64,000 bases of DNA, from positions 32,001-96,000 of the IMG/VR virus record IMGVR_UViG_2974637922_000001; one strand, 5' to 3'. A program made the position numbers and the translations under genes. The DNA is from a virus. Lineage: Duplodnaviria; Caudoviricetes. Shown piece by piece: positions 269-21,009 of the stretch. How positions within the stretch are numbered: the stretch's first letter is position 1; each line of letters opens with the position of its first letter. The notes beneath the pieces are model-generated. The model did no database searches. It saw only the letters and a program-made list of their open reading frames with translations, and was not told the DNA's origin.

Positions 269-515
269 ACTATATACTACAGACAATTATTCAGGTACAA
301 TGAACCTAACTGAACATCAAAAGATTCAACTCTCACAATTTATTCATGAGTCGTTCTCTACATTCTATGAGGAGGAACTAAAGTTTCAAGTAGAAACTCT
401 AAAAGATGATGATAAGTTGGATTGGACTTATACAATCACACCAAGAGACTCAGGGGAGATTTATGATAAGGTTCAGGAATTATTCACACTGGAAAGGCGT
501 GTGACAGTAGAATAA
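240..515 (+). CDS. Hypothetical protein (true start probably 258 or 300)
   Basis: ORF track; stop lies inside dyad R1 (..VTVE*). Confidence 0.65.
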   Translation: MSLLYPMLSKLYTTDNYSGTMNLTEHQKIQLSQFIHESFSTFYEEELKFQVETLKDDDKLDWTYTITPRDSGEIYDKVQELFTLERRVTVE

Positions 516-581
516 GTGACACAAGGGGGGTTGGCAAACCCCCTTTTTGCTGCCATAATATACTCATACACACAAAGACCC
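500..581 (+). promoter_or_regulatory. Repeat R1: dyad + promoter with terminator-like hairpin
   Basis: TGTGACAGTAGAATAAGTGACACA; TTGGCA-N17-CATAAT; GGGGGTT-GGCA-AACCCCC-TTTTT. Confidence 0.9.
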
Positions 582-710
582 ATGAACGTCCCCAACTGGC
601 AGAAGCACTCCAAGAAAGACCAGAAGGGTCGCGGAGTGAGCAAGGGTCAGATGAGAGCCCGCAAACAGGCTCTACGTGCCCTGAAGGCAAAGCTCCTTGT
701 GACAGTCTAG
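582..710 (+). CDS. Small basic protein, 42 aa (MNVPNWQKHSKK..)
   Basis: ATG at the standard position after R1; stop inside R2. Confidence 0.75.
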   Translation: MNVPNWQKHSKKDQKGRGVSKGQMRARKQALRALKAKLLVTV

Positions 711-780
711 GAAGTGGCACAAGCCCCCTAGGCAAACCACCCCACACCTGCTATACTAAACACATACAAAGGAAACCACC
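698..780 (+). promoter_or_regulatory. Repeat R2
   Basis: TGTGACAGTCTAGGAAGTGGCACA; TAGGCA-N17-TATACT; AAAGGA SD. Confidence 0.9.
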
Positions 781-1191
781 ATGGCTCGTCACTCTGAAGT
801 TCTCATCCAAGGCACTGAAGTTCCCGGTCTTCGTATGATCGTAACCGTTCCAGTCGATCACACCTGGGCATCAGAAACCGCCGAGAGCATCTATGGATTT
901 GGTGGCAACACCCAATATATCTGGCGGAAGTCTTGGGAGACTAACCAACCCGCCCCCCGTGGTGGTGGTTCCTCCTCCTCTGGCATGGGTCCTGGAGCTA
1001 TCCTGATGGGGATGATTGGTCTTATCCTGGTTGCTGGTATTGGTTCCGCCTTCGAGGGTAACGACACCCCCTCAGCTCCTTCCTATGACGCTCCCGCACC
1101 TGTTGAGAGGTCATACGTTCCACAGGCACCCGCATCAACATCCTCCTACGATAACGGTCCTTGCCTCACAGCTAACTTTGAACCTTGTTAA
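781..1191 (+). CDS. Hypothetical protein with one TM helix and Pro/Ser-rich tail
   Basis: Follows R2 with SD; hydrophobic stretch AILMGMIGLILVAGIG. Confidence 0.75.
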   Translation: MARHSEVLIQGTEVPGLRMIVTVPVDHTWASETAESIYGFGGNTQYIWRKSWETNQPAPRGGGSSSSGMGPGAILMGMIGLILVAGIGSAFEGNDTPSAPSYDAPAPVERSYVPQAPASTSSYDNGPCLTANFEPC

Positions 1192-1192
1192 T

Positions 1193-1366
1193 ATGAAAGA
1201 CTTTCGTCCCCCACATCACACCACTACTAAAGAAGAGTGGGAGTTTATTTTCCAAACACAGATACATAACTGCGCCCAACTAAAGAACACAGAACTCCAA
1301 CGTTTTGTGTGTGTAGATAGTATGGGCAACAAAACTACCAAATACGTTATCGAATACAATGACTGA
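1193..1366 (+). CDS. Hypothetical protein, 57 aa (MKDFRPP..)
   Basis: ATG 1 nt after the previous stop; in frame with track ORF 1016..1366. Confidence 0.65.
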   Translation: MKDFRPPHHTTTKEEWEFIFQTQIHNCAQLKNTELQRFVCVDSMGNKTTKYVIEYND

Positions 1367-1649
1367 AAAAGAAGTAGAGCTACACTTTGGGAGTGAGTAT
1401 GAGGCTGGCATTGACTATGGGGATAGTGATGATTCAGACATTTTAGACTACACCAAAGAAGTAAGTGTCACACTAACCCGTTCAGATTGGAATTGGTTTG
1501 TTACACTGATGTCAGACTCCGTTAATAAGATGGAGGCTGCAGTTTCTGCACAAGGTATGGATGCTGAGTCCTTCCTTTCTATTGATGTTCTTCGCACTAT
1601 TCGTAATGAAATCGCAACTCAGAGTGGACTCACTCAATATATTGATTGA
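1359..1649 (+). CDS. Hypothetical acidic protein
   Basis: ORF track; overlapping operon packing. Confidence 0.7.
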   Translation: MTEKEVELHFGSEYEAGIDYGDSDDSDILDYTKEVSVTLTRSDWNWFVTLMSDSVNKMEAAVSAQGMDAESFLSIDVLRTIRNEIATQSGLTQYID

Positions 1650-1650
1650 G

Positions 1651-1923
1651 ATGCCAGTGGTGGCACCTAAAGGGTATCACTATGAGGCAGTAGAACACAA
1701 ACAAAATGTAGTGTCTATTTGGTTATGTGGGGGTCCAACATACCTCTACAAGATGGGAGAAACTGCTAGAACTATTCACTCCTTCTATAATATTAAGAAG
1801 AAAACCTGGTATGCACCTATCAACTGCAAGAAGCCAGGTAAGGAGGTATCAGTGGATAAGATACGACCTTACACATCAATGCAACTGAACTACAACCCTC
1901 TGGAGATGCTACTATATGGCTAA
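1651..1923 (+). CDS. Cyanophage-type hypothetical protein (APKGYHYE..YTSMQLNYNPLE)
   Basis: In frame with track ORF 1561..1923; motif recalled from cyanomyovirus hypotheticals. Confidence 0.7.
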   Translation: MPVVAPKGYHYEAVEHKQNVVSIWLCGGPTYLYKMGETARTIHSFYNIKKKTWYAPINCKKPGKEVSVDKIRPYTSMQLNYNPLEMLLYG

Positions 1924-1958
1924 ATATATGTTATAATATCATAACATATATCACGAAT

Positions 1959-2180
1959 ATGAAGTCCAAAGACCAATACAAGAAAGAGTTTCAATTCACA
2001 CTGAATACATCCGATGATAAGATCGCGGAAGAGAATATTCTTCACGATTTCGCCAGAGAGGTTTCAGTTATTGATGCTTTCCTACAAGGTGGGAAGGTAT
2101 CACTAAAGGAGGCAAAACAGCGTATCAAAGATGTATACAAAGTGTGGAAGAACTCACTGAAAAACAACAACCAAATGTAA
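1959..2180 (+). CDS. Hypothetical protein
   Basis: ORF track; preceded by extended -10 TGTTATAAT (1929-1937). Confidence 0.65.
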   Translation: MKSKDQYKKEFQFTLNTSDDKIAEENILHDFAREVSVIDAFLQGGKVSLKEAKQRIKDVYKVWKNSLKNNNQM

Positions 2181-2567
2181 ATGGAACCTTTCCTGCGAAT
2201 GGCTGTTGATGTAGCTGAGTCTTCACCTTCTAGAAAGAAGGTTGGAGCTGTTCTAATGAATAAGAACAAAGTTATAGCAACAGCCACAAATCATGATTGT
2301 AAATCACACCCTCTACAAGCAAAGTGGGCAGACCGTGTGGGACTATCTGAAAAGATATATCTACACGCTGAGATGTCAGCAATGATCAAAGCCCGTGATG
2401 ACTCAGACAAAATCGTTGTAGTTAGACTAGGAGGACATTCTGGTCACGAACTACGACAATCACGTCCTTGTCCTATATGTGAATCATACCTGAAATATTC
2501 GGGTATTGAACACGTATATTATTCCACTGGGAATAACAAATTTACCTATGAATACTGGGGGAAATGA
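2181..2567 (+). CDS. Zinc-dependent cytidine/dCMP deaminase family protein
   Basis: HAE (LHAEMSAM) and PCxxC (RPCPIC) motifs; VGAVL strand. Confidence 0.85.
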   Translation: MEPFLRMAVDVAESSPSRKKVGAVLMNKNKVIATATNHDCKSHPLQAKWADRVGLSEKIYLHAEMSAMIKARDDSDKIVVVRLGGHSGHELRQSRPCPICESYLKYSGIEHVYYSTGNNKFTYEYWGK

Positions 2568-2764
2568 TGGAAACGTTCACAGCAACTTGTCCCAAAGACT
2601 ACGACAGACATCACTATTCAGTTGTCAACAAAGACGGCACGAATAGGATGTTTAGTAGTTGGGAACTCGCACAGAGTTACTGGTGGCATACTAACAAACT
2701 TGGTACACTATCACACATCGATGTGATAGACTATAAAGAACAATCAAGAGGTTTTGGAGCATGA
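2564..2764 (+). CDS. Hypothetical protein
   Basis: ATGA-coupled ORF. Confidence 0.7.
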   Translation: MMETFTATCPKDYDRHHYSVVNKDGTNRMFSSWELAQSYWWHTNKLGTLSHIDVIDYKEQSRGFGA

Positions 2765-3506: not shown

Positions 3507-3678
3507 GAGGAAGGCAGAGGACTGGATTAGTGAGTGGAAAGGAATGAATGATGAGTTCATTGAAGAAGACACTATGTTCAGACTTGACATTCCTTCCACT
3601 GAAAAGACACAAGAATGGATGGATAGAGAACCATTAATCTTAAAAGTAGATCACTCGAAGTATTATTTTGATGACTGA
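3499..3678 (+). CDS. Hypothetical protein, 59 aa
   Basis: In frame with track ORF 3415..3678; coupled start. Confidence 0.6.
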   Translation: MSERKAEDWISEWKGMNDEFIEEDTMFRLDIPSTEKTQEWMDREPLILKVDHSKYYFDD

Positions 3679-3874
3679 AGAAGATCTAATGATCAACTGG
3701 AAACAGAAGATGATGAAACATTGCACCCACGATTGGGAAAAGCAACTATTACGTGAAGGTGCCACATCATCTGTGACAGCAATGGGTATAATGTCACTAA
3801 AGAAACGATACAAAAAGATTATGGGTATTGATGATGATCCAAAGCCACCTGTAGTTCAGTATGCTTCATATTGA
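3668..3874 (+). CDS. Hypothetical protein
   Basis: ORF track; stop inside R3. Confidence 0.7.
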   Translation: MMTEEDLMINWKQKMMKHCTHDWEKQLLREGATSSVTAMGIMSLKKRYKKIMGIDDDPKPPVVQYASY

Positions 3875-3954
3875 CACTTGAATAACTGGCACAAGGGGGG
3901 TAGGCACCCCCCTTTTTTGTGCCATAATACAGAGGTAAACAACGGGAACCACCC
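3870..3954 (+). promoter_or_regulatory. Repeat R3 with terminator-like hairpin
   Basis: ATTGACACTTGAATAACTGGCACA; GGGGGGT-AGGC-ACCCCCC-TTTTTT; TGCCATAAT. Confidence 0.85.
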
Positions 3955-4332
3955 ATGCAACTACCTACCCCCCTGCTAAACAGAGGTTACACTATAAACG
4001 GCAATACTGCCAGTAGGGTATATCAGCACGGTTTTAGAGTAGAGTTAGAGGCACTAACTACCCTAAACATGCCCATAGGTTTACTAAACTATATTATAAA
4101 CGAAAACGATATAGAGTGCCCCTGGGCACCAGCAGATGTAGAGCAGTTTGATACTATCTGGCACTATACTGTTACAGATATTAGAGGTGAGATACTAGAT
4201 AATACATATGGTTTTACAACCTATTATATGTTTGACTCTATTAGAGAGATACATAACGCACTAACAGATATTACAGTAGATAATGCGTTAGATATTATGA
4301 ATGGCACATCTGAACTATATGCCACCTGCTAA
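3955..4332 (+). CDS. Hypothetical lysine-free protein with skewed k-mer content
   Basis: Single-gene cassette between R3 and R4. Confidence 0.8.
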   Translation: MQLPTPLLNRGYTINGNTASRVYQHGFRVELEALTTLNMPIGLLNYIINENDIECPWAPADVEQFDTIWHYTVTDIRGEILDNTYGFTTYYMFDSIREIHNALTDITVDNALDIMNGTSELYATC

Positions 4333-4399
4333 ACTGGCACAGGGGGGCTAGGCACAGCCCCCTACACCTGCTATACTAAACACATACCAAACCAATACT
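4318..4399 (+). promoter_or_regulatory. Repeat R4
   Basis: TATGCCACCTGCTAAACTGGCACA; TAGGCA...TGCTATACT. Confidence 0.85.
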
Positions 4400-4576
4400 A
4401 TGTTTGAATTGATGTTATTGGCGGGGGTGGCATTCACACCTCTCCAAGGATCAGAAACTATCAATCAATTTTGTTCTGAAGTTGTTGGTATCCCATACGC
4501 CAGTGATAACTTCACTGATGAAGAATGGGAACGTTTTACTTATTGTCGCGAATCTATCAAGGTACCTCAAAAATGA
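4400..4576 (+). CDS. Small protein, 58 aa (MFELMLLAGV..IPYASDNFTDEEWERF..)
   Basis: Hand-translated; ATG at the standard position after R4; ATGA overlap with next gene. Confidence 0.75.
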   Translation: MFELMLLAGVAFTPLQGSETINQFCSEVVGIPYASDNFTDEEWERFTYCRESIKVPQK

Positions 4577-4857: not shown

Positions 4858-4858
4858 T

Positions 4859-5068
4859 ATGGATTATCAACCCCCAACTCTCTGTATTCGGAGTATTGAA
4901 CCAGCTACAACTCCCGGTAGGTTCTTGTTAGATATGCCTTCACTTTGGAGAGAACCAGGAGCATTAGAGGTGGATCAATATACCATCGATTATGTTACTG
5001 GTGGGAAATATGAGGTTCCTAAATGTCCCCCAGGTTATCCAAATCCACCAACCCCCGATACACAATGA
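4859..5068 (+). CDS. Hypothetical Pro-rich protein
   Basis: ORF track. Confidence 0.65.
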   Translation: MDYQPPTLCIRSIEPATTPGRFLLDMPSLWREPGALEVDQYTIDYVTGGKYEVPKCPPGYPNPPTPDTQ

Positions 5069-5181
5069 CACCCGAAGAATTTGAAGAGAACGCAAGAATT
5101 ATCACGGGTGACCCAACATGGTCCCTAGATGATGATGTGACAGTTGAGGAAGTGGCACACACTTCCCCGCAAACACCCTGA
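5065..5181 (+). CDS. Small ORF, 38 aa, reading through dyad R5
   Basis: Hand-translated MTPEEFEENARIITGDPTWSLDDDVTVEEVAHTSPQTP; ATGA-coupled. Confidence 0.45.
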   Translation: MTPEEFEENARIITGDPTWSLDDDVTVEEVAHTSPQTP

Positions 5182-5254: not shown

Positions 5255-5605
5255 ATGAATCTCAAGGCACTGGCACTCACTTCCGTTCTCGCCGTTGGTG
5301 GCATCTTTGGATCAGTTGCACCAGCATCAGCTGGCACCTGTTGGTTTGAAAACTACAGTGGTAGTTTGTCTCCAACATATTGTTCCACATATGTTAGGAC
5401 TAACGCTAACGGACACAGGGTTGTGGATGTTGTTGACTATGAAGGAACCGCAATGACGTTGGTATTCTGGACTGATAGTTCAGTTGAGATTCTCTACACT
5501 AACGGGCAATACAATGGTAACCGAGTTGTGGCAACTTGGTACTTCGATGATGATGGTGACCGTCGCATCTACGTTGGTGACTTTGAAATGAGTCTCCGAG
5601 TTTGA
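5255..5605 (+). CDS. Predicted exported protein (signal peptide MNLKALALTSVLAVGG..APASA)
   Basis: Start after R5 leader; n/h/c signal peptide with AxA. Confidence 0.8.
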   Translation: MNLKALALTSVLAVGGIFGSVAPASAGTCWFENYSGSLSPTYCSTYVRTNANGHRVVDVVDYEGTAMTLVFWTDSSVEILYTNGQYNGNRVVATWYFDDDGDRRIYVGDFEMSLRV

Positions 5606-5612: not shown

Positions 5613-5637
5613 GGAGGGTTTATAACCCTCCTTTTTT
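5613..5637 (+). terminator. Intrinsic terminator
   Basis: GGAGGGTT-TAT-AACCCTCC-TTTTTT. Confidence 0.85.
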
Positions 5638-5645: not shown

Positions 5646-5674
5646 TTGCCATTGTAGTTGATATGTGTTATAAT
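5646..5674 (+). promoter_or_regulatory. sigma70-type promoter without dyad
   Basis: TTGCCA-N17-TATAAT with extended TG. Confidence 0.7.
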
Positions 5675-6146: not shown

Positions 6147-6292
6147 TTTTCCATAACGGGGATGGCAGGGACTACCTACCGTCCCTTTTTTATGAAAATA
6201 TGGATTTTTACGAGTTTGGGTCTAGTGCCTGACTGGGTTCTCAGGGAGCAACAAACCCCATATCACCCTGATACCACCCCCCTACACAAAAC
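6147..6292 (+). repeat. Second repeat family, copy A (multi-block non-coding element)
   Basis: Blocks TTTTCCATA, GGCA, CCTACC, ATATGG, GTCTAGTG, TCTCAG, ACAAA, TCACCC, ATACCACCCC, CAAAAC are colinear with 15378-15524 at offset 9231-9232. Confidence 0.8.
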
Positions 6293-6302: not shown

Positions 6303-6408
6303 TGTGCCAGTTGGACTAGTGGCACAACCCCCCTAGGCAAGACCTCCCCTATCGTGTATTGTATAGAAGTGGAGGGGAAACCCACCACACAAACCACTAA
6401 CTAACCAA
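6303..6408 (+). promoter_or_regulatory. Repeat R6
   Basis: TGTGCCAGTTGGACTAGTGGCACA; TAGGCA; divergent -10. Confidence 0.8.
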
Positions 6409-6620: not shown

Positions 6621-6866
6621 ATGAACACAACAACAATCAACATTCTCAAATCACTGGACATTCTTTCCACTTTGATTCAAGCATTCTATGAGATTGGATA
6701 TGAACTTGGCACCTTCTATCGCGACCATCTCCATTCACATGTAAAGTTTGCTATTGAATACTCTGGTCTCGTTATTCGTGAGACCTATAGTAACCGCCAA
6801 GAGTATTTCACAAAACTGAATAACCTTCGCAACCAAGCTGGTTCATACTTTGTCTATAGCGTGTGA
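6621..6866 (+). CDS. Hypothetical protein
   Basis: ORF track; stop GTG-TGA formed by dyad R7. Confidence 0.7.
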   Translation: MNTTTINILKSLDILSTLIQAFYEIGYELGTFYRDHLHSHVKFAIEYSGLVIRETYSNRQEYFTKLNNLRNQAGSYFVYSV

Positions 6867-6946
6867 CAGTTGGGGAAGTGGCACAAGCCCCCTAGGCAAA
6901 CCCCTCAGGGGGTGCTATACTATATTCATACCAAAGGGAACCACCC
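6862..6946 (+). promoter_or_regulatory. Repeat R7
   Basis: TGTGACAGTTGGGGAAGTGGCACA; TAGGCA...TGCTATACT. Confidence 0.9.
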
Positions 6947-7189
6947 ATGACTCATCTTTCCTTCACTCAGACCACACAAAACGCACTCCGTGAGTTAGAT
7001 CGTTTAGAGGGAATTAAAGTTAGACTCGCTGGTCTGATTGTTGATCTTAAAGAGACACCATCAGCTAACTCTGAAACTTGGGTCAGGATGTATACTGACC
7101 GCCTCGTTTCTAATGTTATCCCAGCCATCAAGGAAGTTAAAGAATATCTCACTAGTCAGGATGCACTAGTTACCAAAGCATCCAACTGA
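6947..7189 (+). CDS. Hypothetical protein
   Basis: Cassette R7-R8. Confidence 0.75.
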   Translation: MTHLSFTQTTQNALRELDRLEGIKVRLAGLIVDLKETPSANSETWVRMYTDRLVSNVIPAIKEVKEYLTSQDALVTKASN

Positions 7190-7266
7190 GATACTGGCAC
7201 AAGGGGGGTTGGCAAGACCCCTCAAAACCCCTATACTAAACACATACCAAACAAAGGGAACAACCC
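7178..7266 (+). promoter_or_regulatory. Repeat R8 (left arm degenerate)
   Basis: ...ACTGGCACA; TTGGCA...TATACT. Confidence 0.85.
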
Positions 7267-7518
7267 ATGGCTCAACAAATCAAAATGAGAACACGAGTTT
7301 ATTCTGATGTGACAGTAAGAGATCCACAGAGATATTATGATAGCGTGTTTCAGGGTTATAATGAGTATTGGACACTATTAGAATCAGATGATCCAAAGTG
7401 TATCTTAGTTGAGACTACAGCACAATATGATCTTAACCTGGAAGGACTGAGTTCCTTATATGATATGATCACACCTGAAATGTATCAGTCAACATACAGA
7501 ACTTATATTGAAGTCTAA
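7267..7518 (+). CDS. Hypothetical protein
   Basis: Cassette R8-R9. Confidence 0.75.
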   Translation: MAQQIKMRTRVYSDVTVRDPQRYYDSVFQGYNEYWTLLESDDPKCILVETTAQYDLNLEGLSSLYDMITPEMYQSTYRTYIEV

Positions 7519-7520
7519 GA

Positions 7521-7603
7521 TGTGACAGTTGGGGAAGTGGCACACGCTTCCCCACAAACCACTCCATACCTGCTATACTAAACACATACCAAAGGAAACC
7601 AAC
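7521..7603 (+). promoter_or_regulatory. Repeat R9
   Basis: TGTGACAGTTGGGGAAGTGGCACA; TGCTATACT. Confidence 0.9.
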
Positions 7604-8568: not shown

Positions 8569-9105
8569 ATGGCTATTTTCTCCGAAGAGTTCACCAACAG
8601 CATCAAGTCTAAAGTTGATTCAGTGAAGGATAAATTCACAGGTATCAACATCGGGAAACAGAGTGTTGTTGCTATTGTGGGAGGTACGTTGGTATTCTCT
8701 ACCCTCGCAGTTGGTGCAGTTGGTGCTACAGTTCGTCAGGTTGTTGGTTCTAACATGGCAAAACAATGTAATGTGGCTGTTGGTAACTATGTGGAGTTGG
8801 CTGAAGTTCAGGAAACCGAACTAGTGAGGGCTAATGGATATATTCAATCGGTTCTAGAAAACCCTTGGAGCGCCCTAGTCCTTGGTGCTAGGATGTCTGA
8901 GATGGCAGACGAGATGAGTGCTCGTTGGGATGAGATTGGTGAAGCTGATGATAACTATTTGGAGGCATGTGTTCCTGATAGTGACTTCAAACAATGGGTG
9001 TTTGGTGGATATGTTGAAGCCGATCGGGAAGCTAAGTGGGAAGCAGAATCTACCCTAGAAGATACTCGCCAAATCACAATCAAACTCTCTGAACAACTCG
9101 GATGA
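8569..9105 (+). CDS. Membrane-anchored helical protein
   Basis: TM segment VVAIVGGTLVFSTLAVGAV. Confidence 0.75.
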   Translation: MAIFSEEFTNSIKSKVDSVKDKFTGINIGKQSVVAIVGGTLVFSTLAVGAVGATVRQVVGSNMAKQCNVAVGNYVELAEVQETELVRANGYIQSVLENPWSALVLGARMSEMADEMSARWDEIGEADDNYLEACVPDSDFKQWVFGGYVEADREAKWEAESTLEDTRQITIKLSEQLG

Positions 9106-9353
9106 ACAACCCTTTCGCCTCACTAACTACCGAAGAGTTTATCTCTCTATCTGATGCATGTGCTCTCTCTGAACAAATGTGGAGGGAGCGCTCCCGTTCT
9201 ATAAAAGCAGGGGAGCCACGTTGGTTTTTAGATGGCGAACCTATGTTTACTGAGGAGGAATGTCGCTCAGAGATGAAACGATATCGTGAGTTACAGAAAC
9301 GAGTTTCCTGGTTCACCCTCACACCAGAGGAGAGGGAGGGTGTGCCAGTCTAA
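9102..9353 (+). CDS. Hypothetical protein
   Basis: ATGA-coupled; stop inside R10. Confidence 0.7.
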   Translation: MNNPFASLTTEEFISLSDACALSEQMWRERSRSIKAGEPRWFLDGEPMFTEEECRSEMKRYRELQKRVSWFTLTPEEREGVPV

Positions 9354-9422
9354 GAAGTGGCACAACCCCCCTAGACAAACCCCTCCTTTTCTGCTATACT
9401 ATTCACATACAGACAAAACACT
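9341..9422 (+). promoter_or_regulatory. Repeat R10
   Basis: TGTGCCAGTCTAAGAAGTGGCACA; TAGACA-N17-TATACT. Confidence 0.9.
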
Positions 9423-10328
9423 ATGGCTAAGAATCTCCACCTAGAACACCCAGAAGACCAGCTCCTCACTGGTGACGATAGTGTCATCAGTTGGTTCTAT
9501 GCAACCTCTAGTTCCTCTGTGAAGATGGATGGGGCTCCTGCTATTGTATGGGGAACTAACCCTGAAAATGGTGAGTTCTTTGTTGGAACTAAGTCAGTGT
9601 TTAACAAGAAGAAGATCAAGATATGTTATACTCAGAAGGATATTACAACACTATATGGCCATCAACCTAATGTGGTTGCTATCCTCACTGCCTGTTTGGC
9701 ATACCTCCCCCGCACTGATGTAGTGTATCAGGGTGACTTTATTGGCTTTGGTGGTGATGATACTTACACCCCAAATACTGTCACCTATGTGTTCCCTGAG
9801 GTTGTTGAGGAACGTGTTATCATGGCACCCCATACTTTCTATGTGGGTGAGAAGATGACTGAGATGGATGCCTTCCCTATCTTATCCACTCTAGATGAAT
9901 CACGTCACGTTCACTTTGTTCAACCTACCGTGGATATCTACAACAATAAGGCAAACTGGGAAGAGTTTCAGCGTTGTTATGATGAAGTGAAAGAGGTAGA
10001 TGGTTTCCTAGGTATCAAGAGAGCCGCAGAGGCAAAGATCATCATCAACCAGTTACTCCGTAACAACAAGTATCTTAGTATTCCACTATTGACTGAGATC
10101 TTTGGTACTAAAGAGATGGCTATTCTGTACACCTTCGCACTACATGAGAAGTTCAGAATCCTTGAGGATGCTATCTACTACGATGGTCCCCAGTGTTTGT
10201 TAGATGGTGATGATGTAGAGGCTGAGGGTATTGTTAGAACCAATCAGTTTGGTTCTATGAAACTCGTCAATCGTTACATCTTCAGTGTAGCAAACTTCAA
10301 CAACAGTAAGTTCAGAGAGGTTAAGTAA
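9423..10328 (+). CDS. ATP-dependent ligase-superfamily (RNA-ligase-like) nucleotidyltransferase domain protein
   Basis: Motif I KMDG, motif III-like YQGDF, motif IV EGIV, motif V MKLV; N-terminal HLEHPED recalled from cyanophage proteins. Confidence 0.65.
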   Translation: MAKNLHLEHPEDQLLTGDDSVISWFYATSSSSVKMDGAPAIVWGTNPENGEFFVGTKSVFNKKKIKICYTQKDITTLYGHQPNVVAILTACLAYLPRTDVVYQGDFIGFGGDDTYTPNTVTYVFPEVVEERVIMAPHTFYVGEKMTEMDAFPILSTLDESRHVHFVQPTVDIYNNKANWEEFQRCYDEVKEVDGFLGIKRAAEAKIIINQLLRNNKYLSIPLLTEIFGTKEMAILYTFALHEKFRILEDAIYYDGPQCLLDGDDVEAEGIVRTNQFGSMKLVNRYIFSVANFNNSKFREVK

Positions 10329-10522
10329 TGATTGACTTCGATACTCTAACCCACGAAGAACTAGAGAGACTATCTGATGACTGTGAAGACTTTCTTCTTC
10401 ATAGAAATATACCTCTAAGGTCACATTCCTATGAGAATATCATCAGACATGCTATCTTGGAAGGATACCAACTCTCTCGGTATCCTGGTGTGACACCTGG
10501 GAAACTGGCACAAGACCCCTAG
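10328..10522 (+). CDS. Hypothetical protein
   Basis: TAATG-coupled; reads through dyad R11. Confidence 0.7.
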   Translation: MIDFDTLTHEELERLSDDCEDFLLHRNIPLRSHSYENIIRHAILEGYQLSRYPGVTPGKLAQDP

Positions 10523-10572
10523 ACAAACCAGACCACACCTGCTATACTATATTCATACCAAACAAACAACCC
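10489..10572 (+). promoter_or_regulatory. Repeat R11
   Basis: TGTGACACCTGGGAAACTGGCACA; TAGACA...TGCTATACT. Confidence 0.9.
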
Positions 10573-12476: not shown

Positions 12477-12686
12477 ATGTCTTCACCATCAGCATTCACA
12501 CCAGCATTAGGTCTAGAAGTTGAATACAGGGGCTTTGTGGGTTATATCAAGTTTATAGATGAAGAATATTTAACAGTGTGTGTGAAGAAGAAAGAGCACC
12601 AAATGTTTGGTGATGTTTGTATGGTTGTGTATCCAAGTCAGTGGGAACACATTAAACTAATGGGCGGACCTCACAGAGACCGCTAG
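12477..12686 (+). CDS. Hypothetical small beta-rich protein (GLEVEYRGFVGYIKFI..)
   Basis: ORF track; stop inside R12. Confidence 0.7.
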   Translation: MSSPSAFTPALGLEVEYRGFVGYIKFIDEEYLTVCVKKKEHQMFGDVCMVVYPSQWEHIKLMGGPHRDR

Positions 12687-12770
12687 GACAGTTGGAGAAG
12701 TGTCACAAGGGGGGTTCGCAACCCTCCTTTTTTATGCTATACTATATTCATACCAAAGGGAACCACCCCC
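12684..12770 (+). promoter_or_regulatory. Repeat R12 with terminator-like hairpin
   Basis: TAGGACAGTTGGAGAAGTGTCACA; GGGGGGTT-CGC-AACCCTCC-TTTTTT; TGCTATACT. Confidence 0.85.
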
Positions 12771-12917
12771 ATGACTATCAACTTCAAAAGTCTATTCATC
12801 ACCACTTGTGTGGGTCTCACCCTAATACTAGGGAGCTTCGCTTTTACCAGTGATTATGGTACTGAGACCGGGCGTGGCGAACAGACTGAGAGCCCTTACT
12901 ACGGACCCGCTTTCTAA
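12771..12917 (+). CDS. Small membrane/exported peptide, 48 aa
   Basis: Hand-translated; cassette R12-R13. Confidence 0.7.
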   Translation: MTINFKSLFITTCVGLTLILGSFAFTSDYGTETGRGEQTESPYYGPAF

Positions 12918-12985
12918 AGTGGCACAAGGGGGGTTGGCAAGACCCTCTACACCTGCTATACTAAACACATACCAAACAAGGAACC
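12903..12985 (+). promoter_or_regulatory. Repeat R13 (left arm degenerate)
   Basis: ...AAGTGGCACA; TTGGCA...TGCTATACT. Confidence 0.85.
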
Positions 12986-13162
12986 ATGTTCAAACTTCAA
13001 CTTAAGTGGCAGAAAGGAGGTGAGTGGATTGATACAGTATACGCTCCTACAGAATACGCAACAGCTTTCTTTCGTTGGAGACAGTACCAAGAGCTTTGGG
13101 GTGATACTCACACCTATCGCCTCCTCGATGTGACACCTCAGGAAGTGGCACAAGCCTCCTAG
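12986..13162 (+). CDS. Small Trp-rich protein, 58 aa (MFKLQLKWQKGGEW..)
   Basis: Hand-translated; cassette R13-R14, reads through dyad. Confidence 0.7.
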   Translation: MFKLQLKWQKGGEWIDTVYAPTEYATAFFRWRQYQELWGDTHTYRLLDVTPQEVAQAS

Positions 13163-13211
13163 GCAAACCACCCCACACCTGCTATACTAAACACATACCA
13201 AACAAAGAACC
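13129..13211 (+). promoter_or_regulatory. Repeat R14
   Basis: TGTGACACCTCAGGAAGTGGCACA; promoter part nearly identical to R2. Confidence 0.9.
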
Positions 13212-13526: not shown

Positions 13527-13682
13527 ATGTTTGTATCCTTCACTGAAATCCAAGACTACATTCGCGAAGATCAATACACATATAGTGAGCGCCAGTTCCG
13601 CTCACGCAAGTATAAAAAGAACGAACGTCGTTACCAACGTCGCCAGAAACAACAACAAAGAGACCGCACCTACGACGTGTGA
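13527..13682 (+). CDS. Small Arg/Gln-rich protein, 51 aa
   Basis: Hand-translated MFVSFTEIQDYIRED..; stop GTG-TGA in R15. Confidence 0.65.
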   Translation: MFVSFTEIQDYIREDQYTYSERQFRSRKYKKNERRYQRRQKQQQRDRTYDV

Positions 13683-13761
13683 CAGTTGGAGAAGTGGCAC
13701 ACGCTTCTCCGCAAACCCCTAAGGGGGTGCTATACTATATTCATACCAAAGGGAACCACCC
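13678..13761 (+). promoter_or_regulatory. Repeat R15
   Basis: TGTGACAGTTGGAGAAGTGGCACA; TCCGCA-N17-TATACT. Confidence 0.9.
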
Positions 13762-13986
13762 ATGACCACCACCACTCCAAACCTCTACAACGAAGCTATC
13801 CGTCGTTTGGCTGACGGGTTCTCCTCAGAGTTCGCTGAGTTCTGTGCAGGAGACGAGAGGGTTCACGAGATCATGATGGAACTCGCTAGTGAGTTCGTAG
13901 AAACTAATATCCCTGTAGTGAGTGAGGACAGCCAGACTGACGTGGCATCTGAGCTCCTCATGAGTATCACAGTCACCAAGGTGTGA
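13762..13986 (+). CDS. Hypothetical acidic protein
   Basis: Cassette R15-R16. Confidence 0.75.
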   Translation: MTTTTPNLYNEAIRRLADGFSSEFAEFCAGDERVHEIMMELASEFVETNIPVVSEDSQTDVASELLMSITVTKV

Positions 13987-14066
13987 CAGTCTAGGAACTG
14001 GCACAAGGGGGGTTGGCAACACCCCCCAAACCCCTTATAATAAACACATACCAAACAACCCAGACC
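13982..14066 (+). promoter_or_regulatory. Repeat R16
   Basis: TGTGACAGTCTAGGAACTGGCACA; TTGGCA...TATAAT. Confidence 0.9.
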
Positions 14067-15377: not shown

Positions 15378-15524
15378 TTTTCCATATTCCTGTCGGCAAC
15401 CACCTCCTACCATACCCCCTGCCAAACCGATATGGTTTTTTCACCTTTCCCGTCTAGTGGCTCACTGGTGTCTCAGCGAGGCACAAATGAGATTTCACCC
15501 CCATACCACCCCTCTGACCAAAAC
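15378..15524 (+). repeat. Second repeat family, copy B
   Basis: Colinear blocks with 6147-6292. Confidence 0.8.
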
Positions 15525-15529: not shown

Positions 15530-15841
15530 ATGAAACGCTACGGACTTTATTGGCTGAGAGCTATCACCCTGGGAGCTGGTTTGAACTTTGTTTTGACTGG
15601 TTACCTTATGGGTCACCAAAAGTGGAAGTTTCAACATGCAGCTCCACTCTCAGCGTTTATCTGTGTGAATCTATCGTATGTGGCAGATCGTCTTATCTTT
15701 GGCGATAAGAAGGAACCTGAAGATTTAGATCCAGATACTATTGTTATATCAACCCCACACTGTTGCCCCGTATGTTCAGAGTATCCTTGCACTTGTGACA
15801 GTTGGGAAAGTGGCACAACCCCCCTAGGCAACACCCTCTGA
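15530..15841 (+). CDS. Two-TM protein with C-terminal Cys cluster (CCPVCSEYPCTC)
   Basis: ORF track; reads through R17. Confidence 0.65.
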   Translation: MKRYGLYWLRAITLGAGLNFVLTGYLMGHQKWKFQHAAPLSAFICVNLSYVADRLIFGDKKEPEDLDPDTIVISTPHCCPVCSEYPCTCDSWESGTTPLGNTL

Positions 15842-15877
15842 ACCTGCTATACTAAACACATACCAAAGGAACCAACC
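15794..15877 (+). promoter_or_regulatory. Repeat R17
   Basis: TGTGACAGTTGGGAAAGTGGCACA; TAGGCA...TGCTATACT. Confidence 0.9.
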
Positions 15878-16075
15878 ATGAAAGTCTCTCAGGAAGTTTT
15901 CAAGAGTTACATTCAGATACTGGATGAAAACACACAAACATCATGGGATATCCTAAATGTTTTGAATGATATTGTTAGAGGTGACTGGGATAACTCAGTC
16001 CAGTATTGTTTGGAAAATCCATCAGGCGACCCTATGGATGATTTCAACTACGCAGGCAGTCGCCACCACTATTGA
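15878..16075 (+). CDS. Hypothetical protein (..DDFNYAGSRHHY)
   Basis: Follows R17. Confidence 0.75.
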   Translation: MKVSQEVFKSYIQILDENTQTSWDILNVLNDIVRGDWDNSVQYCLENPSGDPMDDFNYAGSRHHY

Positions 16076-16104
16076 TCACTAACTCACCACACCAACTAAC
16101 AACT

Positions 16105-16389
16105 ATGACACGCACTCCAATCACAGTTACCCTCAAGCGTAGCGAATGGGAATGTTATACAGACACTCCTGATACTATCATCGAAACCATCAACACATAC
16201 TTCTCTTATGTGTTATCAACTAAAGATAACGCATTTGATGCACAAGCTGAGATATTTAAGTTTCTGAATATGTTTAGTGAGTTTGGGTTTATGGATAGTG
16301 AGTGCCTAGAATGTGCAACTAGAGTTATCAATCGTTACTTTGATTCATATCTTTCCCGCTGGAGTCAGGTGGGTGATGTGACAGTCTAG
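16105..16389 (+). CDS. Hypothetical protein (MTRTPITV..)
   Basis: In frame with track ORF 16072..16389; stop inside R18. Confidence 0.7.
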   Translation: MTRTPITVTLKRSEWECYTDTPDTIIETINTYFSYVLSTKDNAFDAQAEIFKFLNMFSEFGFMDSECLECATRVINRYFDSYLSRWSQVGDVTV

Positions 16390-16457
16390 GAACTGGCACA
16401 CGCTTCTCCGCAAACCCCTCAGGGGGTGCTATACTATATTCATACCAAAGGAACCAA
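16377..16457 (+). promoter_or_regulatory. Repeat R18
   Basis: TGTGACAGTCTAGGAACTGGCACA; TCCGCA...TGCTATACT. Confidence 0.9.
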
Positions 16458-16775
16458 ATGAATTTCAGAACACTAGCACTCACCACCACCCTGGCTCTCT
16501 CCACTGTCCTAGGTGGTTTGGCTCCTGAAGCTAAGTCAGCTGACTTTTGTGACAACATCCCCGGCAACTCGGGATACGTTTGTGTTACCATGGGTCTCTG
16601 GTTCGACTTGGTTGAGGCAGACATACCCGCCTTTGGTGGTAAAGAGTCATTACACATCACCTGTGACGGTGGCTGGTCCTACCGTTCGAATGGCAACTGG
16701 AACAAAGACGCCGCTTCCCTTGTGGCTAAGGAGTACTGTGAAGGTGCTGGCTGGAACAGCCACTCCGAGGTGTGA
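16458..16775 (+). CDS. Predicted exported 4-Cys protein, paralog of 13212..13493
   Basis: Signal peptide; cassette R18-R19. Confidence 0.8.
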   Translation: MNFRTLALTTTLALSTVLGGLAPEAKSADFCDNIPGNSGYVCVTMGLWFDLVEADIPAFGGKESLHITCDGGWSYRSNGNWNKDAASLVAKEYCEGAGWNSHSEV

Positions 16776-16854
16776 CAGTTGAGGAAGTGGCACACGCTTC
16801 CCCCAAAACCCCTCAGGGGGTGCTATACTATATTCATACCAAACAAGGAAACCA
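16771..16854 (+). promoter_or_regulatory. Repeat R19
   Basis: TGTGACAGTTGAGGAAGTGGCACA; TGCTATACT. Confidence 0.9.
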
Positions 16855-17156: not shown

Positions 17157-17330
17157 ATGAACCGACTAGAACTACTGACCCAACGTGAACAACTGATGGA
17201 GAGGATTGACTCTATCTGTGATGAATTCTTTTATAAGAACTATAATGGAGATACGTCAGAAGCAGATGAATTAGTTCGTATTCTATGTGATGCTGTTTGT
17301 GAAACCATAGACCCAGCGGGTATGGTGTGA
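17157..17330 (+). CDS. Small protein, 57 aa (MNRLELLTQREQLME..LCDAVC)
   Basis: Hand-translated; stop GTG-TGA in R20. Confidence 0.7.
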   Translation: MNRLELLTQREQLMERIDSICDEFFYKNYNGDTSEADELVRILCDAVCETIDPAGMV

Positions 17331-17409
17331 CAGTTGGACTAGTGGCACACGCTTCTCCGCAAACCCCTCCTCACCTGCTATACTATATTCATACCAAAGG
17401 AAACCGACC
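17326..17409 (+). promoter_or_regulatory. Repeat R20
   Basis: TGTGACAGTTGGACTAGTGGCACA; TCCGCA...TGCTATACT. Confidence 0.9.
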
Positions 17410-17673
17410 ATGTTCCAAGTCTGTATTGAAGATTCACTAGATCACCGTCATACAGTTGATGAGTTTGAGACTCTGGAAGAAGCACAAGAGTGTTATAACG
17501 AGTGTTTGAAGATTGGTCCTGAGGGTTATGAACTCTCTGTTGAGTTAGAGCAAGTTATTGGCGACCATGATGATTATATTTCAATTGATTTCACCGAGTG
17601 GTTTACACAAGAGGAGTGGGATGTGGCTCATCCATGGAATGAGAAGGAAGGAGTATGGGAAAACATAGACTGA
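17410..17673 (+). CDS. Very acidic small protein
   Basis: Cassette R20-R21. Confidence 0.75.
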   Translation: MFQVCIEDSLDHRHTVDEFETLEEAQECYNECLKIGPEGYELSVELEQVIGDHDDYISIDFTEWFTQEEWDVAHPWNEKEGVWENID

Positions 17674-17759
17674 TGTGACAGTTGGAGAAGTGGCACACGC
17701 TTCTCCGCAAGACCCGCCTCACCTGCTATACTATTCACATACCAAACAAAGGAAACCAA
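17674..17759 (+). promoter_or_regulatory. Repeat R21
   Basis: TGTGACAGTTGGAGAAGTGGCACA; TCCGCA...TGCTATACT. Confidence 0.9.
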
Positions 17760-18101
17760 ATGACCACCACCCAAACCAAAACCGAGTTCCTCACCGAGGC
17801 AATGATCGAACAGGTGAACAACCTCTGGAAGGTTTATAACGTGGAGTCAGGTCACACCATCACCCCACTCCTTAAGTATGAAGTGGCTAAGAAGTATATC
17901 AAGGTCTATCGTCTTGATGTTGTCAATGGTGAGATTCGTGACGGTCGTTCTGTGTTTATGTTTATCGATAAGGAGACTGGAGCAGTTCTGAAACCAGCCA
18001 GTTGGAGAGCACCCGCTAAGGGTATCCGGTTCTACATTGAGTCGTTGGCAGAGAACCCTGAGCTGGTTGATCAATACGGTTCATTCCTCTACCGTCGCTG
18101 A
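17760..18101 (+). CDS. Phage hypothetical protein (FIDKETGAVLKPASWRAPAKGIRF)
   Basis: Cassette R21-R22; motif recalled from phage hypotheticals. Confidence 0.8.
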   Translation: MTTTQTKTEFLTEAMIEQVNNLWKVYNVESGHTITPLLKYEVAKKYIKVYRLDVVNGEIRDGRSVFMFIDKETGAVLKPASWRAPAKGIRFYIESLAENPELVDQYGSFLYRR

Positions 18102-18183
18102 TGTGACAGCCACCAAGGTGGCACAGGGGGGCTAGGCAGCTCCCCTTCTTTATGCTATACTATATTCATACCAAAGGAACCCG
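18102..18183 (+). promoter_or_regulatory. Repeat R22 with hairpin
   Basis: TGTGACAGCCACCAAGGTGGCACA; GGGGGGCT-AGGC-AGCTCCCC-TTCTTT; TGCTATACT. Confidence 0.9.
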
Positions 18184-19437
18184 ATGACCCTGACTCTCCG
18201 CCCCCACCAACTAGAAGCACTTCAGGTGATGGCTGAGACCCGTCTTGGCCAGATATTAGTTCCAACCGGTGGTGGTAAGACCCTTATCGCTATCATGGAC
18301 GTTGTGAGGACTCTAGAGAACGCAGGAACCCCTCAGACTATCGTTGTGGTAGCTCCCCGTATCCTTCTAGCTCAGCAACTCTGTAGTGAGTATATGGAGG
18401 TTCTGAGCGACCAGTTCGCCAACGTTATCCCCGCCCATATTCACTCAGGTCATACACCTCACTTTTCTACCACTAACATTCAGAAGATCCATCTTTTCGA
18501 GAAGATGATGGATACCGCCAACCTCCACCGCATATATTTCACCACATACAACTCACTTCCACGTTTAGCAGAAGCAGGTGTAAGTGTAGATACTATTATG
18601 TTTGATGAGGCACATAACTCTACTCGTAATGACTTCTATCCCGCTACCAAGTATTTCTCACAGACCGCTAGTCGTTGTTACTACTTTACAGCAACTCCCC
18701 GCCACTCTGTAACATCCAAGAGACACGGAATGAACGAGTCTGATGTATACGGACAGGTTATCTACAATGTTCCCGCTCCTACACTTGTACAAGGTGGTTT
18801 CATCATCCCCCCACAGGTTCTTGTTAAAGAAATGGAGTTCGTAGCTAAACACGAGCTCATCTCACAACGTGACACAAACCACCTCATCTCTTGTATTGAT
18901 GACAACAACACGAGCAAAGTTCTAGTTTGTGCTAAGTCTGTCAAACAGATCATGCGTATGTTTAGTGAGACCGATATCAGCCAACAACTTGATGATCGTG
19001 GTTTCTCCTATATGTACATCTCAGCTAAGACTGGTGGTGTTATCAATGGTAAGAAAGTATCACGTACTATGTTCTTCGATACTCTAAACGAGTGGGGTAA
19101 GGATAACGACAAGAAGTTCATTGTACTTCATCATTCTATTCTCAGTGAAGGTATCAACGTGAGTGGTTTGGAGTCAGCTATCTTCTTACGTACCATGGAT
19201 CATATTACTATCTCCCAAACGATTGGACGTGTGATAAGACTTCACAAAGATGATGCTCAAGGTATGAGAGAGGGTACGATTCGCCCCGGTGATCTTAACT
19301 CCTACACTAAGTCGTTTGGTTTGTGTATTGTTCCAGTTTATTCTAAGACACAACAAACCGTTGCTAAGTCTCTTCAAGCAGTTGTCAATACCGTCTTTGT
19401 TGAAGGTGAAGCAGCAACCACAGTTGTGAGGCGTTAG
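18184..19437 (+). CDS. SF2 DEAH-box helicase (ResIII-like)
   Basis: Q-motif LRPHQ, Walker A PTGGGKT, DEAH, TATP, SEGIN, QTIGRVIR. Confidence 0.9.
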   Translation: MTLTLRPHQLEALQVMAETRLGQILVPTGGGKTLIAIMDVVRTLENAGTPQTIVVVAPRILLAQQLCSEYMEVLSDQFANVIPAHIHSGHTPHFSTTNIQKIHLFEKMMDTANLHRIYFTTYNSLPRLAEAGVSVDTIMFDEAHNSTRNDFYPATKYFSQTASRCYYFTATPRHSVTSKRHGMNESDVYGQVIYNVPAPTLVQGGFIIPPQVLVKEMEFVAKHELISQRDTNHLISCIDDNNTSKVLVCAKSVKQIMRMFSETDISQQLDDRGFSYMYISAKTGGVINGKKVSRTMFFDTLNEWGKDNDKKFIVLHHSILSEGINVSGLESAIFLRTMDHITISQTIGRVIRLHKDDAQGMREGTIRPGDLNSYTKSFGLCIVPVYSKTQQTVAKSLQAVVNTVFVEGEAATTVVRR

Positions 19438-19545
19438 TATGAATTATCAAAACCAAGCTCTTGTGATACTTCTAGGTCTAATGTTCATAGCTGGTATTAA
19501 CGTACTTCACTACGAACAACAATGGCAATGTAGGATGCATCAAAC

Positions 19546-20256
19546 CTATTGTTTTGTTTCTGAATAATACCATAGGTAACCCTTCCAACGCGAACCCCAT
19601 TTGATTGAAGTACAAATACCCTTCCCACGATCCTCCTCGTTAAAGGATCTCATCGCAGCACTAATAGAGTCAAACACGGGTGTAACATGACCGCTCTTAT
19701 GAACTCCATAGACTTGTTTCTTATTCTTAGCGTGTTTATGAATCCACCATTTATGACCATATGCAGTGCCCTCTCGATCTATACTACGACGGATACTTGA
19801 TGGAATTCCGTTTACATATTCAGCGGCAGCAACCCAACCATGAAAGGTCTTTATCTTACCCGTTTCAAGGTTACGACATTTGATCACGTTCTTATCATGT
19901 TTCTTAGGTTTCTTCTTCCGTTGATAACCCCAACGCCTATCCCCTTTATGATATGACTCTTTATTATTCAGCTTCTTAGTCTTATGCTCCATCACTAAAA
20001 CGTTGTACTCAGGGTTATACTTATTCATCCAATATTCCACTCGTTCAGTAACCTTATTCTCATTCACTTCTTCTAGTATGCGTATAGTGAAGTCATCGGA
20101 GTTATAGTAACCCAACGCATTCGACAGAGGAGTATTTTCCTCCTTATGATTCTTAAGGATATTAGACCAAACTTTATTCAGGGGAAGCGTATCATAACCA
20201 ATGTATTTGTGAGAGGTTTGTCTATTCAAGATGATGTAGATGTTTGTGATACTCAC
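19546..20256 (-). CDS. GIY-YIG-like domain plus two NUMOD1-like DNA-binding repeats; catalytic residues look substituted
   Basis: NIYII..KYIG, F.IRILE, EYN; C-terminal F.GW..AA..TAYGHKW and FDSISAAM..WKGYLW repeats. Confidence 0.7.
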   Translation of the reverse strand: MSITNIYIILNRQTSHKYIGYDTLPLNKVWSNILKNHKEENTPLSNALGYYNSDDFTIRILEEVNENKVTERVEYWMNKYNPEYNVLVMEHKTKKLNNKESYHKGDRRWGYQRKKKPKKHDKNVIKCRNLETGKIKTFHGWVAAAEYVNGIPSSIRRSIDREGTAYGHKWWIHKHAKNKKQVYGVHKSGHVTPVFDSISAAMRSFNEEDRGKGICTSIKWGSRWKGYLWYYSETKQ

Positions 20257-20340
20257 GCCAGATACTCTCTATTCTGATTGTATATATAAACATTATCTTT
20301 TTTTATCACATATCGTTCATCATCTCCCTATTGAATGTTA

Positions 20341-20456
20341 TAATAGAAAGGAAGAGATAAACGTATATAACCAACGTAATCACCTAAGGAAAGGTTATCT
20401 AATAGAAGGAACTAATCAATACATTAACCAACGTAATCATATAGGGGAAGGTGAAT
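20341..20456 (+). repeat. Two imperfect ~57-bp tandem repeats in non-coding DNA
   Basis: TAACCAACGTAATCA at 20368 and 20425; each unit starts TAATAGAA and ends ..AAGGT. Confidence 0.75.
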
Positions 20457-20666
20457 AGAAAGCCCTATAGAAAGAACCCCTTATTCAATACAATCCCCAA
20501 GGTAATAACCAATAAGATAGTATCATATAACGAGGTCTTTAGGTTGCTCTAAGTCTCTCCTAAACTCCACTGCCCGTTGCAACCTAAGCCCGTTATAACA
20601 CGGGACTTCGGAAAAGTCAAGGGATCTCCGAAAAACTTAATATTTCTCCCCTCCCCCCTGGACTCC

Positions 20667-20753
20667 TGTGCCAATTCCCAAACTGGCACACGGAAACCCC
20701 AAAACCCCTCCCAGTACCCTATACTATATTCATACAAACAAAGGGAACACCCC
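20667..20753 (+). promoter_or_regulatory. Repeat R23
   Basis: TGTGCCAATTCCCAAACTGGCACA; TATACT. Confidence 0.85.
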
Positions 20754-20912
20754 ATGACCAAAGCAACTCAGAGACCTTCCACCCAGAGCCGTTACACCAG
20801 TCAGGTAGCCCGGGACCGTAAGGCAGCAGCACTCCAGAGGGCTGAGGAGCGTCGCCTCACTGGCTCATGTGGAGAGGATCAGGTGAACCGCCTCTACACT
20901 GTGACACTCTGA
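20754..20912 (+). CDS. Small basic protein, 52 aa
   Basis: Cassette R23-R24; in frame with track ORF 20577..20912. Confidence 0.7.
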   Translation: MTKATQRPSTQSRYTSQVARDRKAAALQRAEERRLTGSCGEDQVNRLYTVTL

Positions 20913-21009
20913 TAACTGGCACAACCCCCCTTGACCCCACCCCCTCTATACCCTATAATATAGAGGTAGGGGGGGAAACCACTCTACACTCACTCTAAAC
21001 TCTCTAAAC
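20900..21009 (+). promoter_or_regulatory. Repeat R24
   Basis: TGTGACACTCTGATAACTGGCACA; TTGACC-N17-TATAAT. Confidence 0.9.

Follow-up and report, generated by a model that had tools for sequence, protein, structure and literature searches.

Promoter-early stem-loop (PeSL) cassettes, described in the T4-type phages RB49/phi1, T4/PST and KVP40/nt-1 (PMC2839356; PMC4122927), are early sigma-70-type promoters repeated between the small open reading frames (ORFs) of hyperplastic regions, and recombination between their copies yields deletions and mini-circles. In the cyanophage S-PM2, no dense PeSLs were found in a 2015 paper (PMC4503421). The element considered here is a 24-bp dyad, TGTGNCA-N10-TGNCACA, which is repeated between small genes in the first 21 kb of a 64,000-nt stretch of viral DNA (the window; bases 32001-96000 of the 196,842-bp record IMGVR_UViG_2974637922_000001, genome completeness 86%). 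Nearly all genes that precede a dyad end within it, beside it or a short way past it, and this arrangement probably arises from compaction together with PeSL-like homologous and short-homology recombination between promoter copies.

The dyad elements resemble PeSLs in that a sigma-70-type promoter (-35, 17-nt spacer and -10) is repeated in intergenic spaces, in that 20 of the 24 copies in the genome are concentrated in the hyperplastic region (500-20923) and lie at indels and replacements between close relatives, and in that crossovers fall at various points within the element. Indels flanked by direct repeats also fit the copy-with-copy recombination known for PeSLs. The elements differ in that the upstream part is a conserved 24-bp two-armed site, whereas that of a PeSL is an AT-rich stretch with a stem-loop, in that a terminator is present in only 4-6 of the 24 copies, with the -35 in the hairpin loop, and in that gene ends lie within the elements. 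An array of small unrelated ORFs, each with an imperfect palindrome that often overlaps its stop codon, is likewise a feature of integrons and their attC sites; unlike these, the array in the window has no integrase, a separate promoter for each cassette, no covariation of the kind expected for a folded site and no fixed crossover point. Promoter-mediated gene shuffling of the PeSL style would thereby be extended to cyanophages, in which it was previously reported as not evident (S-PM2; PMC4503421).

The source genome is that of a T4-like cyanomyovirus. Its nearest known kin is Synechococcus phage ACG-2014f (Kyanoviridae, Atlauavirus), nine isolates of which match window positions 500-21000 at 94-96% identity over only 36-41% of that length. 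In annotated relatives the homologous stretch consists of about 90 small plus-strand hypothetical genes flanked by tail-fibre genes and by baseplate gp25/gp6, and because the run of small genes sits between tail-fibre and baseplate genes, the first 21 kb of the window correspond to a hyperplastic region. With at most one mismatch, the dyad pattern has 24 matches in the genome, 20 of which lie at 500-20923, two just upstream and two far away; all are on the plus strand and have a TATACT or TATAAT box 30 nt downstream. The 24 dyads of the region (dyads 1 to 24 below, all on the plus strand) comprise the 20 matches and four degenerate or half copies at 3870, 7178, 12684 and 12903. The right arm, TGNCACA, is kept in all 24, and the left arm is imperfect in five, of which three (3870, 4318 and 12684) have a degenerate arm and two (7178 and 12903) lack it. 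In these five copies the loss or degeneracy coincides with coding sequence that overlaps the arm, and the half dyads are conserved in relatives. A consensus scan found a plus-strand -35-like hexamer (TTGGCA, TAGGCA or TAGACA) with a 16-17-nt spacer at 14 elements. Each repeat would be an early promoter cassette of about 90 bp with the dyad as its upstream part, beginning with a 24-bp protein-binding site of two arms, followed after 7 nt by a weak -35 hexamer and then by a 17-nt spacer, a TATACT -10, a short leader and the ATG; both the early timing of the promoters and the binding of a protein by the dyad are predicted from the sequence.

The dyad is probably the upstream half of a repeated promoter type that is common to cyanomyoviruses. 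A scan of IMG/VR for the pattern yielded 120 stretches. Uncultured contigs in which two or more copies are present, each with a -10 box spaced as in the window, number at least 48 and range from AT-rich and Prochlorococcus-phage-like to GC-rich. Exact dyads number two in Syn9, three in S-PM2 and six in P-SSM2, against none for a reversed control pattern, and the layout of dyad and -10 in S-PM2 and P-SSM2 is that of the window. Across a broad set of about 200 non-identical elements, drawn from this genome and from stretches L005-L123 (205 elements were used for the pairing analysis), the consensus is TGTGMCASTT-N4-AASTGKCACA. The element occurs beyond the hyperplastic region too, since dyad promoters lie outside the window at genome positions 167084-167107, about 190 nt upstream of the phage psbA (genome 167300-168379), and at genome position 112077. 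No description of the dyad was found in searches of the literature, and we know of no report of gene ends embedded in the early-gene regulatory element of T4-like cyanophages. The dyad promoter is presumably of the same type as that element, which was reportedly described by Doron et al. (2016, ISME J 10:1437).

Positions of stop codons are given here as the offset of the first base of the stop relative to dyad base 1. A frame-by-frame scan of all 24 dyads bears out the count made in an earlier, sequence-only reading of this DNA, according to which 22 of the 24 preceding ORFs end at the dyad: 15 stop within it (at +1 once, at +3 in six copies, at +10/+11 in five and at +13/+14 in three), four read through it, with stops ending at 5181 (+44), 10522 (+32), 13162 (+32) and 15841 (+46), and three end 0-2 nt before it, at 7518 with a 2-nt gap and at 17673 and 18101 in direct contact. 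No ORF ends at the dyads at 6303 and 20667. For positions drawn at random from this region, the probability that the stop of a plus-strand frame of at least 40 codons falls within -4 to +46 is 0.29, against 22 of 24 observed (p = 2e-10), and for the narrower interval from -4 to +14 it is 0.11, against 18 of 24 (p = 6e-13). In the relative KJ019105, the independently made GenBank gene calls agree with these offsets at 23 of 24 elements. The 22 proteins encoded upstream of dyads are mutually unrelated, and their shared C-terminal tails, to which the sequence-only reading had drawn attention, are indeed encoded by the dyad (V*, VTV*, VPV*, VTVE*, VTL* and VTPxxxAQxx*, the asterisk being the stop). 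For annotation, tails such as V*, VTV* and VTPxxxAQ should be read as dyad-encoded and not as functional motifs.

In the broad set, the positions of upstream stops have maxima at -2, -3, +3, +10/11 and +13/14. When the elements are classed solely by which upstream frame has no stop for at least 40 codons, the claim that the repeat supplies stop codons holds there as well, since the left-arm TGA is over-represented among elements entered in its frame: an A at dyad position 5, which gives TGA, is present in 33 of the 38 elements that an ORF enters in frame 3 and in 57 of 160 otherwise (odds ratio 12, p = 9e-9), and the enrichment persists when this genome is left out (27/32 versus 45/145). Stops in the centre are enriched for frame 1 (18 of 31 in-frame elements versus 36 of 167, p = 1e-4). 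Thus, free positions of a promoter site double as stops of the preceding gene across many cyanomyoviruses, which indicates the extent to which coding and regulatory sequence can overlap in phages.

The tightness of these junctions is not peculiar to the dyad. Four complete relatives (L001-L004, L004 being isolate Syn7803US39) were used for comparison, and in L001 the gene overlaps the next one at 25 of the 52 junctions that have no element (48%), with gaps of 6 nt or less at 30 of the 52; at junctions with an element, 17 of 24 stops lie within -4 to +14. Homologues on distant contigs, which mostly have no dyad after them, end within 0-3 codons of the same point, so the upstream genes are whole and not truncated at the dyad edge. 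The gene at 10328-10522 overlaps a right arm in distant phages also, and some junctions are therefore old. The sequence-only reading had regarded ragged, gradual 3' erosion of homologues, and similar overlap of stops with promoters that have no dyad, as arguments against a precise cassette junction; both are largely found, as erosion of the left arm in the five copies noted above and as the overlaps at element-less junctions. Its own alternative, simple genome compaction, is accordingly taken up in the explanation favoured here.

Chained BLAST of the region against the four relatives reveals about 15 distinct indel or replacement events, the ends of which lie mostly inside or beside elements. 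On either side of four insertions lie direct repeats of 41-84 nt, which are whole or partial elements (window 7519-7602, 12687-12767, 17721-17768 and 20715-20756), and the remaining ends fall at element coordinates -16, -9, -3 to +4, +15, +24, +41 to +52, +63 and +75 to +98. At dyad 9, L001, L003 and L004 have an extra 174-nt cassette between two whole elements (the 84-nt repeat, equivalent to window 7519-7602); in L002, 621 nt with 81-nt flanking repeats are inserted at dyad 12 and 252 nt with a 48-nt flanking repeat (element +48 to +95) at dyad 21. The ORF at 16458-16775 is replaced by other genes in L002, with breakpoints at +75 of the dyad 18 element and at -3 of the next, and at dyad 24 homology with relatives stops exactly at dyad base 24. 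The elements themselves vary: between the same two genes, orthologous elements can differ in their centres and -35 segments, a given 10-nt centre can be followed by any of two or three different downstream segments, and all combinations of downstream class and -10 class are represented. The elements are mosaics of freely recombined modules. Because the breakpoints are spread and the modules mosaic, recombination takes place throughout the element and not at its left edge alone. The proposal that the left edge is a precise cassette junction is thus right in one respect, in that gene-specific sequence ends and shared sequence begins there, and wrong in another, in that the edge is not a unique crossover point; similarity does not consistently end at the TGTG boundary, the breakpoints ranging from -16 to +98.

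Exchange of cassettes between close relatives is evident upstream of the gene at 4400, where four genomes have four different genes joined to the same element, all of which stop in the left arm or centre; each of these genes seems to travel with its own left arm. The origin of a junction can be reconstructed in two cases. At dyad 3 (3870), relatives read ...TATTGACACTT and then the next gene, and in the window the TATTGACACTT bases run into a centre and right arm identical to those of an element 3.5 kb downstream in L002, the result of a deletion at a short homology of about 15 nt by which the TGA of the gene was superimposed on that of the arm. In L003 and L004, a 271-nt deletion (segment 4861-5133) with TGAT microhomology brings the TGA of a gene directly against the dyad at 5136.

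The explanation that we consider best, and probably correct, combines compaction with recombination of the PeSL kind, both homologous and at short homologies, between copies of the promoter. According to this model, the genes of the region would pack, possibly under selection for compactness, against whichever functional signal comes next: where this is a start codon the two genes would overlap (as ATGA and similar), and where it is a dyad promoter the gene would extend as far as the dyad or enter it. Such overlap would be tolerated since neither position 5 nor the centre is constrained, and these free positions would serve as stops (TGA at +3; TAA, TAG or TGA at +10 to +14). The junctions would originate from deletions at short homologies that include the stop, and homologous recombination or gene conversion between promoter copies would then move genes together with their dyad-embedded ends. 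Several observations weigh against this model. Compaction alone does not explain why four unrelated genes at the 4400 element all stop in the left arm or centre, a case that also needs a process favouring junctions at the dyad, or co-transfer of gene and left arm. Centre stops in frame 2 show no enrichment in the broad set (18/57 versus 36/141), and because the approximately 200 elements share ancestry and are not phylogenetically independent, the p-values obtained from them are optimistic. The direct control, a promoter with no dyad, is represented in the region by a single case, the promoter at 5646-5674 (TTGCCA, 17-nt spacer, TATAAT) behind a terminator at 5613-5631, where the upstream ORF has its stop at 5603-5605, 7 nt ahead of the hairpin.

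An unlikely alternative is that the dyad is an active hotspot of junction formation, which, as a protein-bound or near-palindromic site, might stall replication or be nicked, after which short-homology end joining would repeatedly capture or trim genes exactly at the left arm, often with the TGA as the microhomology. Both reconstructed junctions use short homologies that include the stop (TATTGACACTT against left arm and centre at 3870, and TGAT at 5133), the association of frame 3 with A at position 5 would follow without selection for early termination, and the avoidance of perfect palindromes with 10-bp arms (positions 8/17, see below) could reflect a cost of breakage. These two junctions are, however, the only ones reconstructed, and TGA is not in excess among stops that abut the dyad (at -2: seven TGA, six TAG and three TAA). 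In most of the +3 cases a perfect TGTG is kept, which places the join upstream of the TGA, and element-less junctions are equally tight, so that no special hotspot is needed. That the dyad is a promoter-linked site of gene capture, at which preferred breakage and short-homology joining trim new genes at the left arm without a dedicated recombinase, is doubtful, and it is just as doubtful that the TGA of the arm serves as both microhomology and stop. A functional coupling is improbable; in this reading, early stops are selected because translation of the upstream gene would otherwise enter the sequence beyond the dyad and keep terminators or other RNA hairpins there from folding on transcripts that read through. 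The 4-6 elements with an intrinsic terminator directly after the dyad have upstream stops at -2 to +14, and the four read-through ORFs of the window face elements without a T-tract terminator; yet most elements have no terminator and their upstream ORFs stop early regardless, strict terminators are too few in the broad set for a comparison (1 versus 1), and 53 of the 126 ORFs that reach a dyad elsewhere read through it.

The least probable explanation, to which we give hardly any weight, is an integron-like site-specific system in which the dyad serves as a recombinase core site, with conserved arms and a variable crossover centre, and its left edge is the exact point at which cassettes are excised and joined. 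Points in its favour are that each gene has at its 3' end a site with two arms and a variable centre, that one element is joined to four different genes in four genomes and that several right-hand homology boundaries lie at -3 to +4. The genome, at 86% completeness, and the four complete relatives nevertheless contain no match to the Phage_integrase (PF00589) or Resolvase (PF00239) profile, whereas control genomes were matched; the tyrosine or serine recombinase for which the sequence-only reading had suggested looking elsewhere in the genome was not found by this search. The absence of a recombinase together with the spread of breakpoints, some of them at indels with 41-84-nt flanking repeats, largely refutes the reading of the dyad as an integron or recombinase site. 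It is further contradicted by the promoter that every cassette has at a fixed distance from its dyad, by dyads elsewhere in the genome that precede core genes and psbA, by the five copies in which the left arm is degenerate or missing, and by the lack of the pairing covariation that a folded attC-like site would show.

This lack of covariation was established with the 205 elements of the pairing analysis. At the variable mirror positions 5/20, 93 Watson-Crick pairs are present versus 102 expected, and at positions 8/17 there are 43 versus 88 expected, the same base (G/G or C/C) occupying both positions in 139 of the 205 elements. Either perfect palindromes with 10-bp arms seem to be avoided or the site seems to be read asymmetrically. 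Since neither pair of mirror positions covaries, the dyad is more readily understood as a protein site than as a folded strand. Formation of an RNA or DNA hairpin by the dyad is ruled out by the absence of covariation, by the anti-covariation at 8/17 and by the absence of an Rfam match to the dyad. In one class of elements (7521-7560, 13678-13717, 17674-17713 and 5136-5175), the 3' half of the centre and the following TG can pair with a segment after the right arm, which then forms the loop (GGGGAAGTG with CGCTTCCCC); a compensating change occurs in the same class (GGAGAAGTG with CGCTTCTCC), and the class copies at 16377 and 17326 break the pairing.

Which protein reads the dyad is a more important question than the position of the gene ends, and a host operator offers a directly testable candidate. 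CGRE1 is the operator of the GntR-type regulator PMM1637/PlmA at the host Yfr2 small-RNA promoters, a GTTG-flanked palindrome beginning 55-57 nt ahead of the start site (PMC6191309). A sequence that fits this operator, ...ACTGGCACA|GTGCCAGTT(G), precedes Cyano-1 (RF01701) RNAs in three genomes of marine Synechococcus and consists of the two arms of the phage dyad; the host arms abut in the opposite order (...ACTGGCACA|GTGCCAGTTG), with a -10-like hexamer 42 nt further on in two loci. Cyano-1 is taken to correspond to Yfr2. The half-site sequence is thus shared; the half-sites of CGRE1 form an abutting inverted repeat of 21-22 nt, whereas those of the phage are everted and 4-10 nt apart. PlmA is a candidate for the reader of the dyad, not a conclusion. 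T4-like cyanophages are not known to encode MotA or AsiA. The full dyad is rejected as a host operator, because five Synechococcus/Cyanobium genomes hold the 24-bp form no more often than the reversed control; a search for host arms separated by 2-5 nt found none, and no small-RNA genes lie next to the dyad matches in host genomes.

Among the dyads that contain a stop, those with TGA at +3 are dyad 3 (3870-3893; left arm ATTGACA, terminator 3893-3914, promoter 3901-3928), which ends the ORF 3668-3874, and five dyads whose upstream ORFs end GTG-TGA: dyad 7 (6862-6885; promoter 6893-6921; ORF 6621-6866), dyad 15 (13678-13701; ORF 13527-13682), dyad 16 (13982-14005; promoter 14013-14041; ORF 13762-13986, the protein of which has the same length in distant homologues), dyad 19 (16771-16794; ORF 16458-16775), the orthologous element of which in L001 has both a different centre and a different -35 segment, and dyad 20 (17326-17349; ORF 17157-17330). 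Stops at +10 or +11 are found in half dyad 8 (7178-7201; right arm only, 7195-7201; promoter 7209-7237), where the ORF 6947-7189 codes across the left-arm position to a TGA at +10 and which is present likewise in relatives, and at +11 in dyad 2 (698-721; promoter 729-757; ORF 582-710, ...VTV*, TAG), dyad 10 (9341-9364; promoter 9372-9400; ORF 9102-9353, ...VPV*, TAA), dyad 18 (16377-16400; ORF 16072-16389, ...VTV*) and dyad 24 (20900-20923; ORF 20754-20912, TGA). At dyad 18 a TGA also precedes the dyad, so that all three frames are stopped within 16 nt. A TAA lies at +14 in dyad 1 (500-523; promoter 531-559; ORF 240-515) and at +13 in dyad 4 (4318-4341; left arm TATGCCA; promoter 4349-4377; ORF 3955-4332) and in half dyad 13 (12903-12926; right arm only; promoter 12934-12962; ORF 12771-12917). 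In dyad 12 (12684-12707; left arm TAGGACA; terminator 12707-12729; promoter 12715-12743), bases 1-3 are replaced by the TAG stop (+1) of the ORF 12477-12686.

The dyads that are read through are dyad 5 (5136-5159), by the ORF 5065-5181; dyad 11 (10489-10512; promoter 10520-10548), by the ORF 10328-10522, the TAG of which lies within the -35; dyad 14 (13129-13152; promoter 13160-13188), by the ORF 12986-13162, which ends in TAG and whose gene has another dyad centre and a stop at +11 in L002; and dyad 17 (15794-15817; promoter 15825-15853), by the ORF 15530-15841, which ends in TGA. Dyad 9 (7521-7544) follows the ORF 7267-7518, and dyads 21 (17674-17697) and 22 (18102-18125; terminator-like hairpin 18125-18146; promoter 18133-18161) are abutted by the TGA of the ORFs 17410-17673 and 17760-18101, respectively. 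Downstream of dyad 22 is a helicase-like gene (18184-19437). At the corresponding place in L004 (31403-31918, equivalent to window 18102-18153), the upstream stop is separated from the helicase-like gene's promoter by an inserted gene that is annotated as an endonuclease and has a promoter-like sequence of its own; the insertion displaces the original dyad. The two dyads without an upstream ORF end both have the arms TGTGCCA/TGGCACA; they are dyad 6 (6303-6326), which has perfect arms and lies downstream of a terminator at 6167-6186, and dyad 23 (20667-20690).

Terminator-like hairpins directly after the dyad were found by scan at 3893, 12707 and 18125, and a further one at about 525-549, after dyad 1, was missed by the consensus scan and seen by eye; most copies have none. 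At these four places (525-549, 3893-3914, 12707-12729 and 18125-18146) terminator and promoter overlap, a G+C-rich hairpin carrying the -35 in its loop and the T-run doubling as the promoter spacer. Gain or loss of a promoter is seen where three relatives have a whole element with 15 nt of upstream sequence between two genes (L001:21837-21943); the window (9098-9107) and L002 have no such element, and the same two genes overlap there as ATGA. A 95-nt direct repeat with two copies that are 72% identical (6198-6292 and 15430-15524) shows no unusual folding on either strand. Each copy lies in a gap of about 240-280 nt for which relatives have no annotation, and directly precedes a dyad (dyad 6) or the insertion point of a dyad plus gene (15524/15530). 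The only sizeable minus-strand ORF of the region, at 19546-20256, is annotated in relatives as 'cox1-i7 protein', which suggests a homing-endonuclease-like gene.

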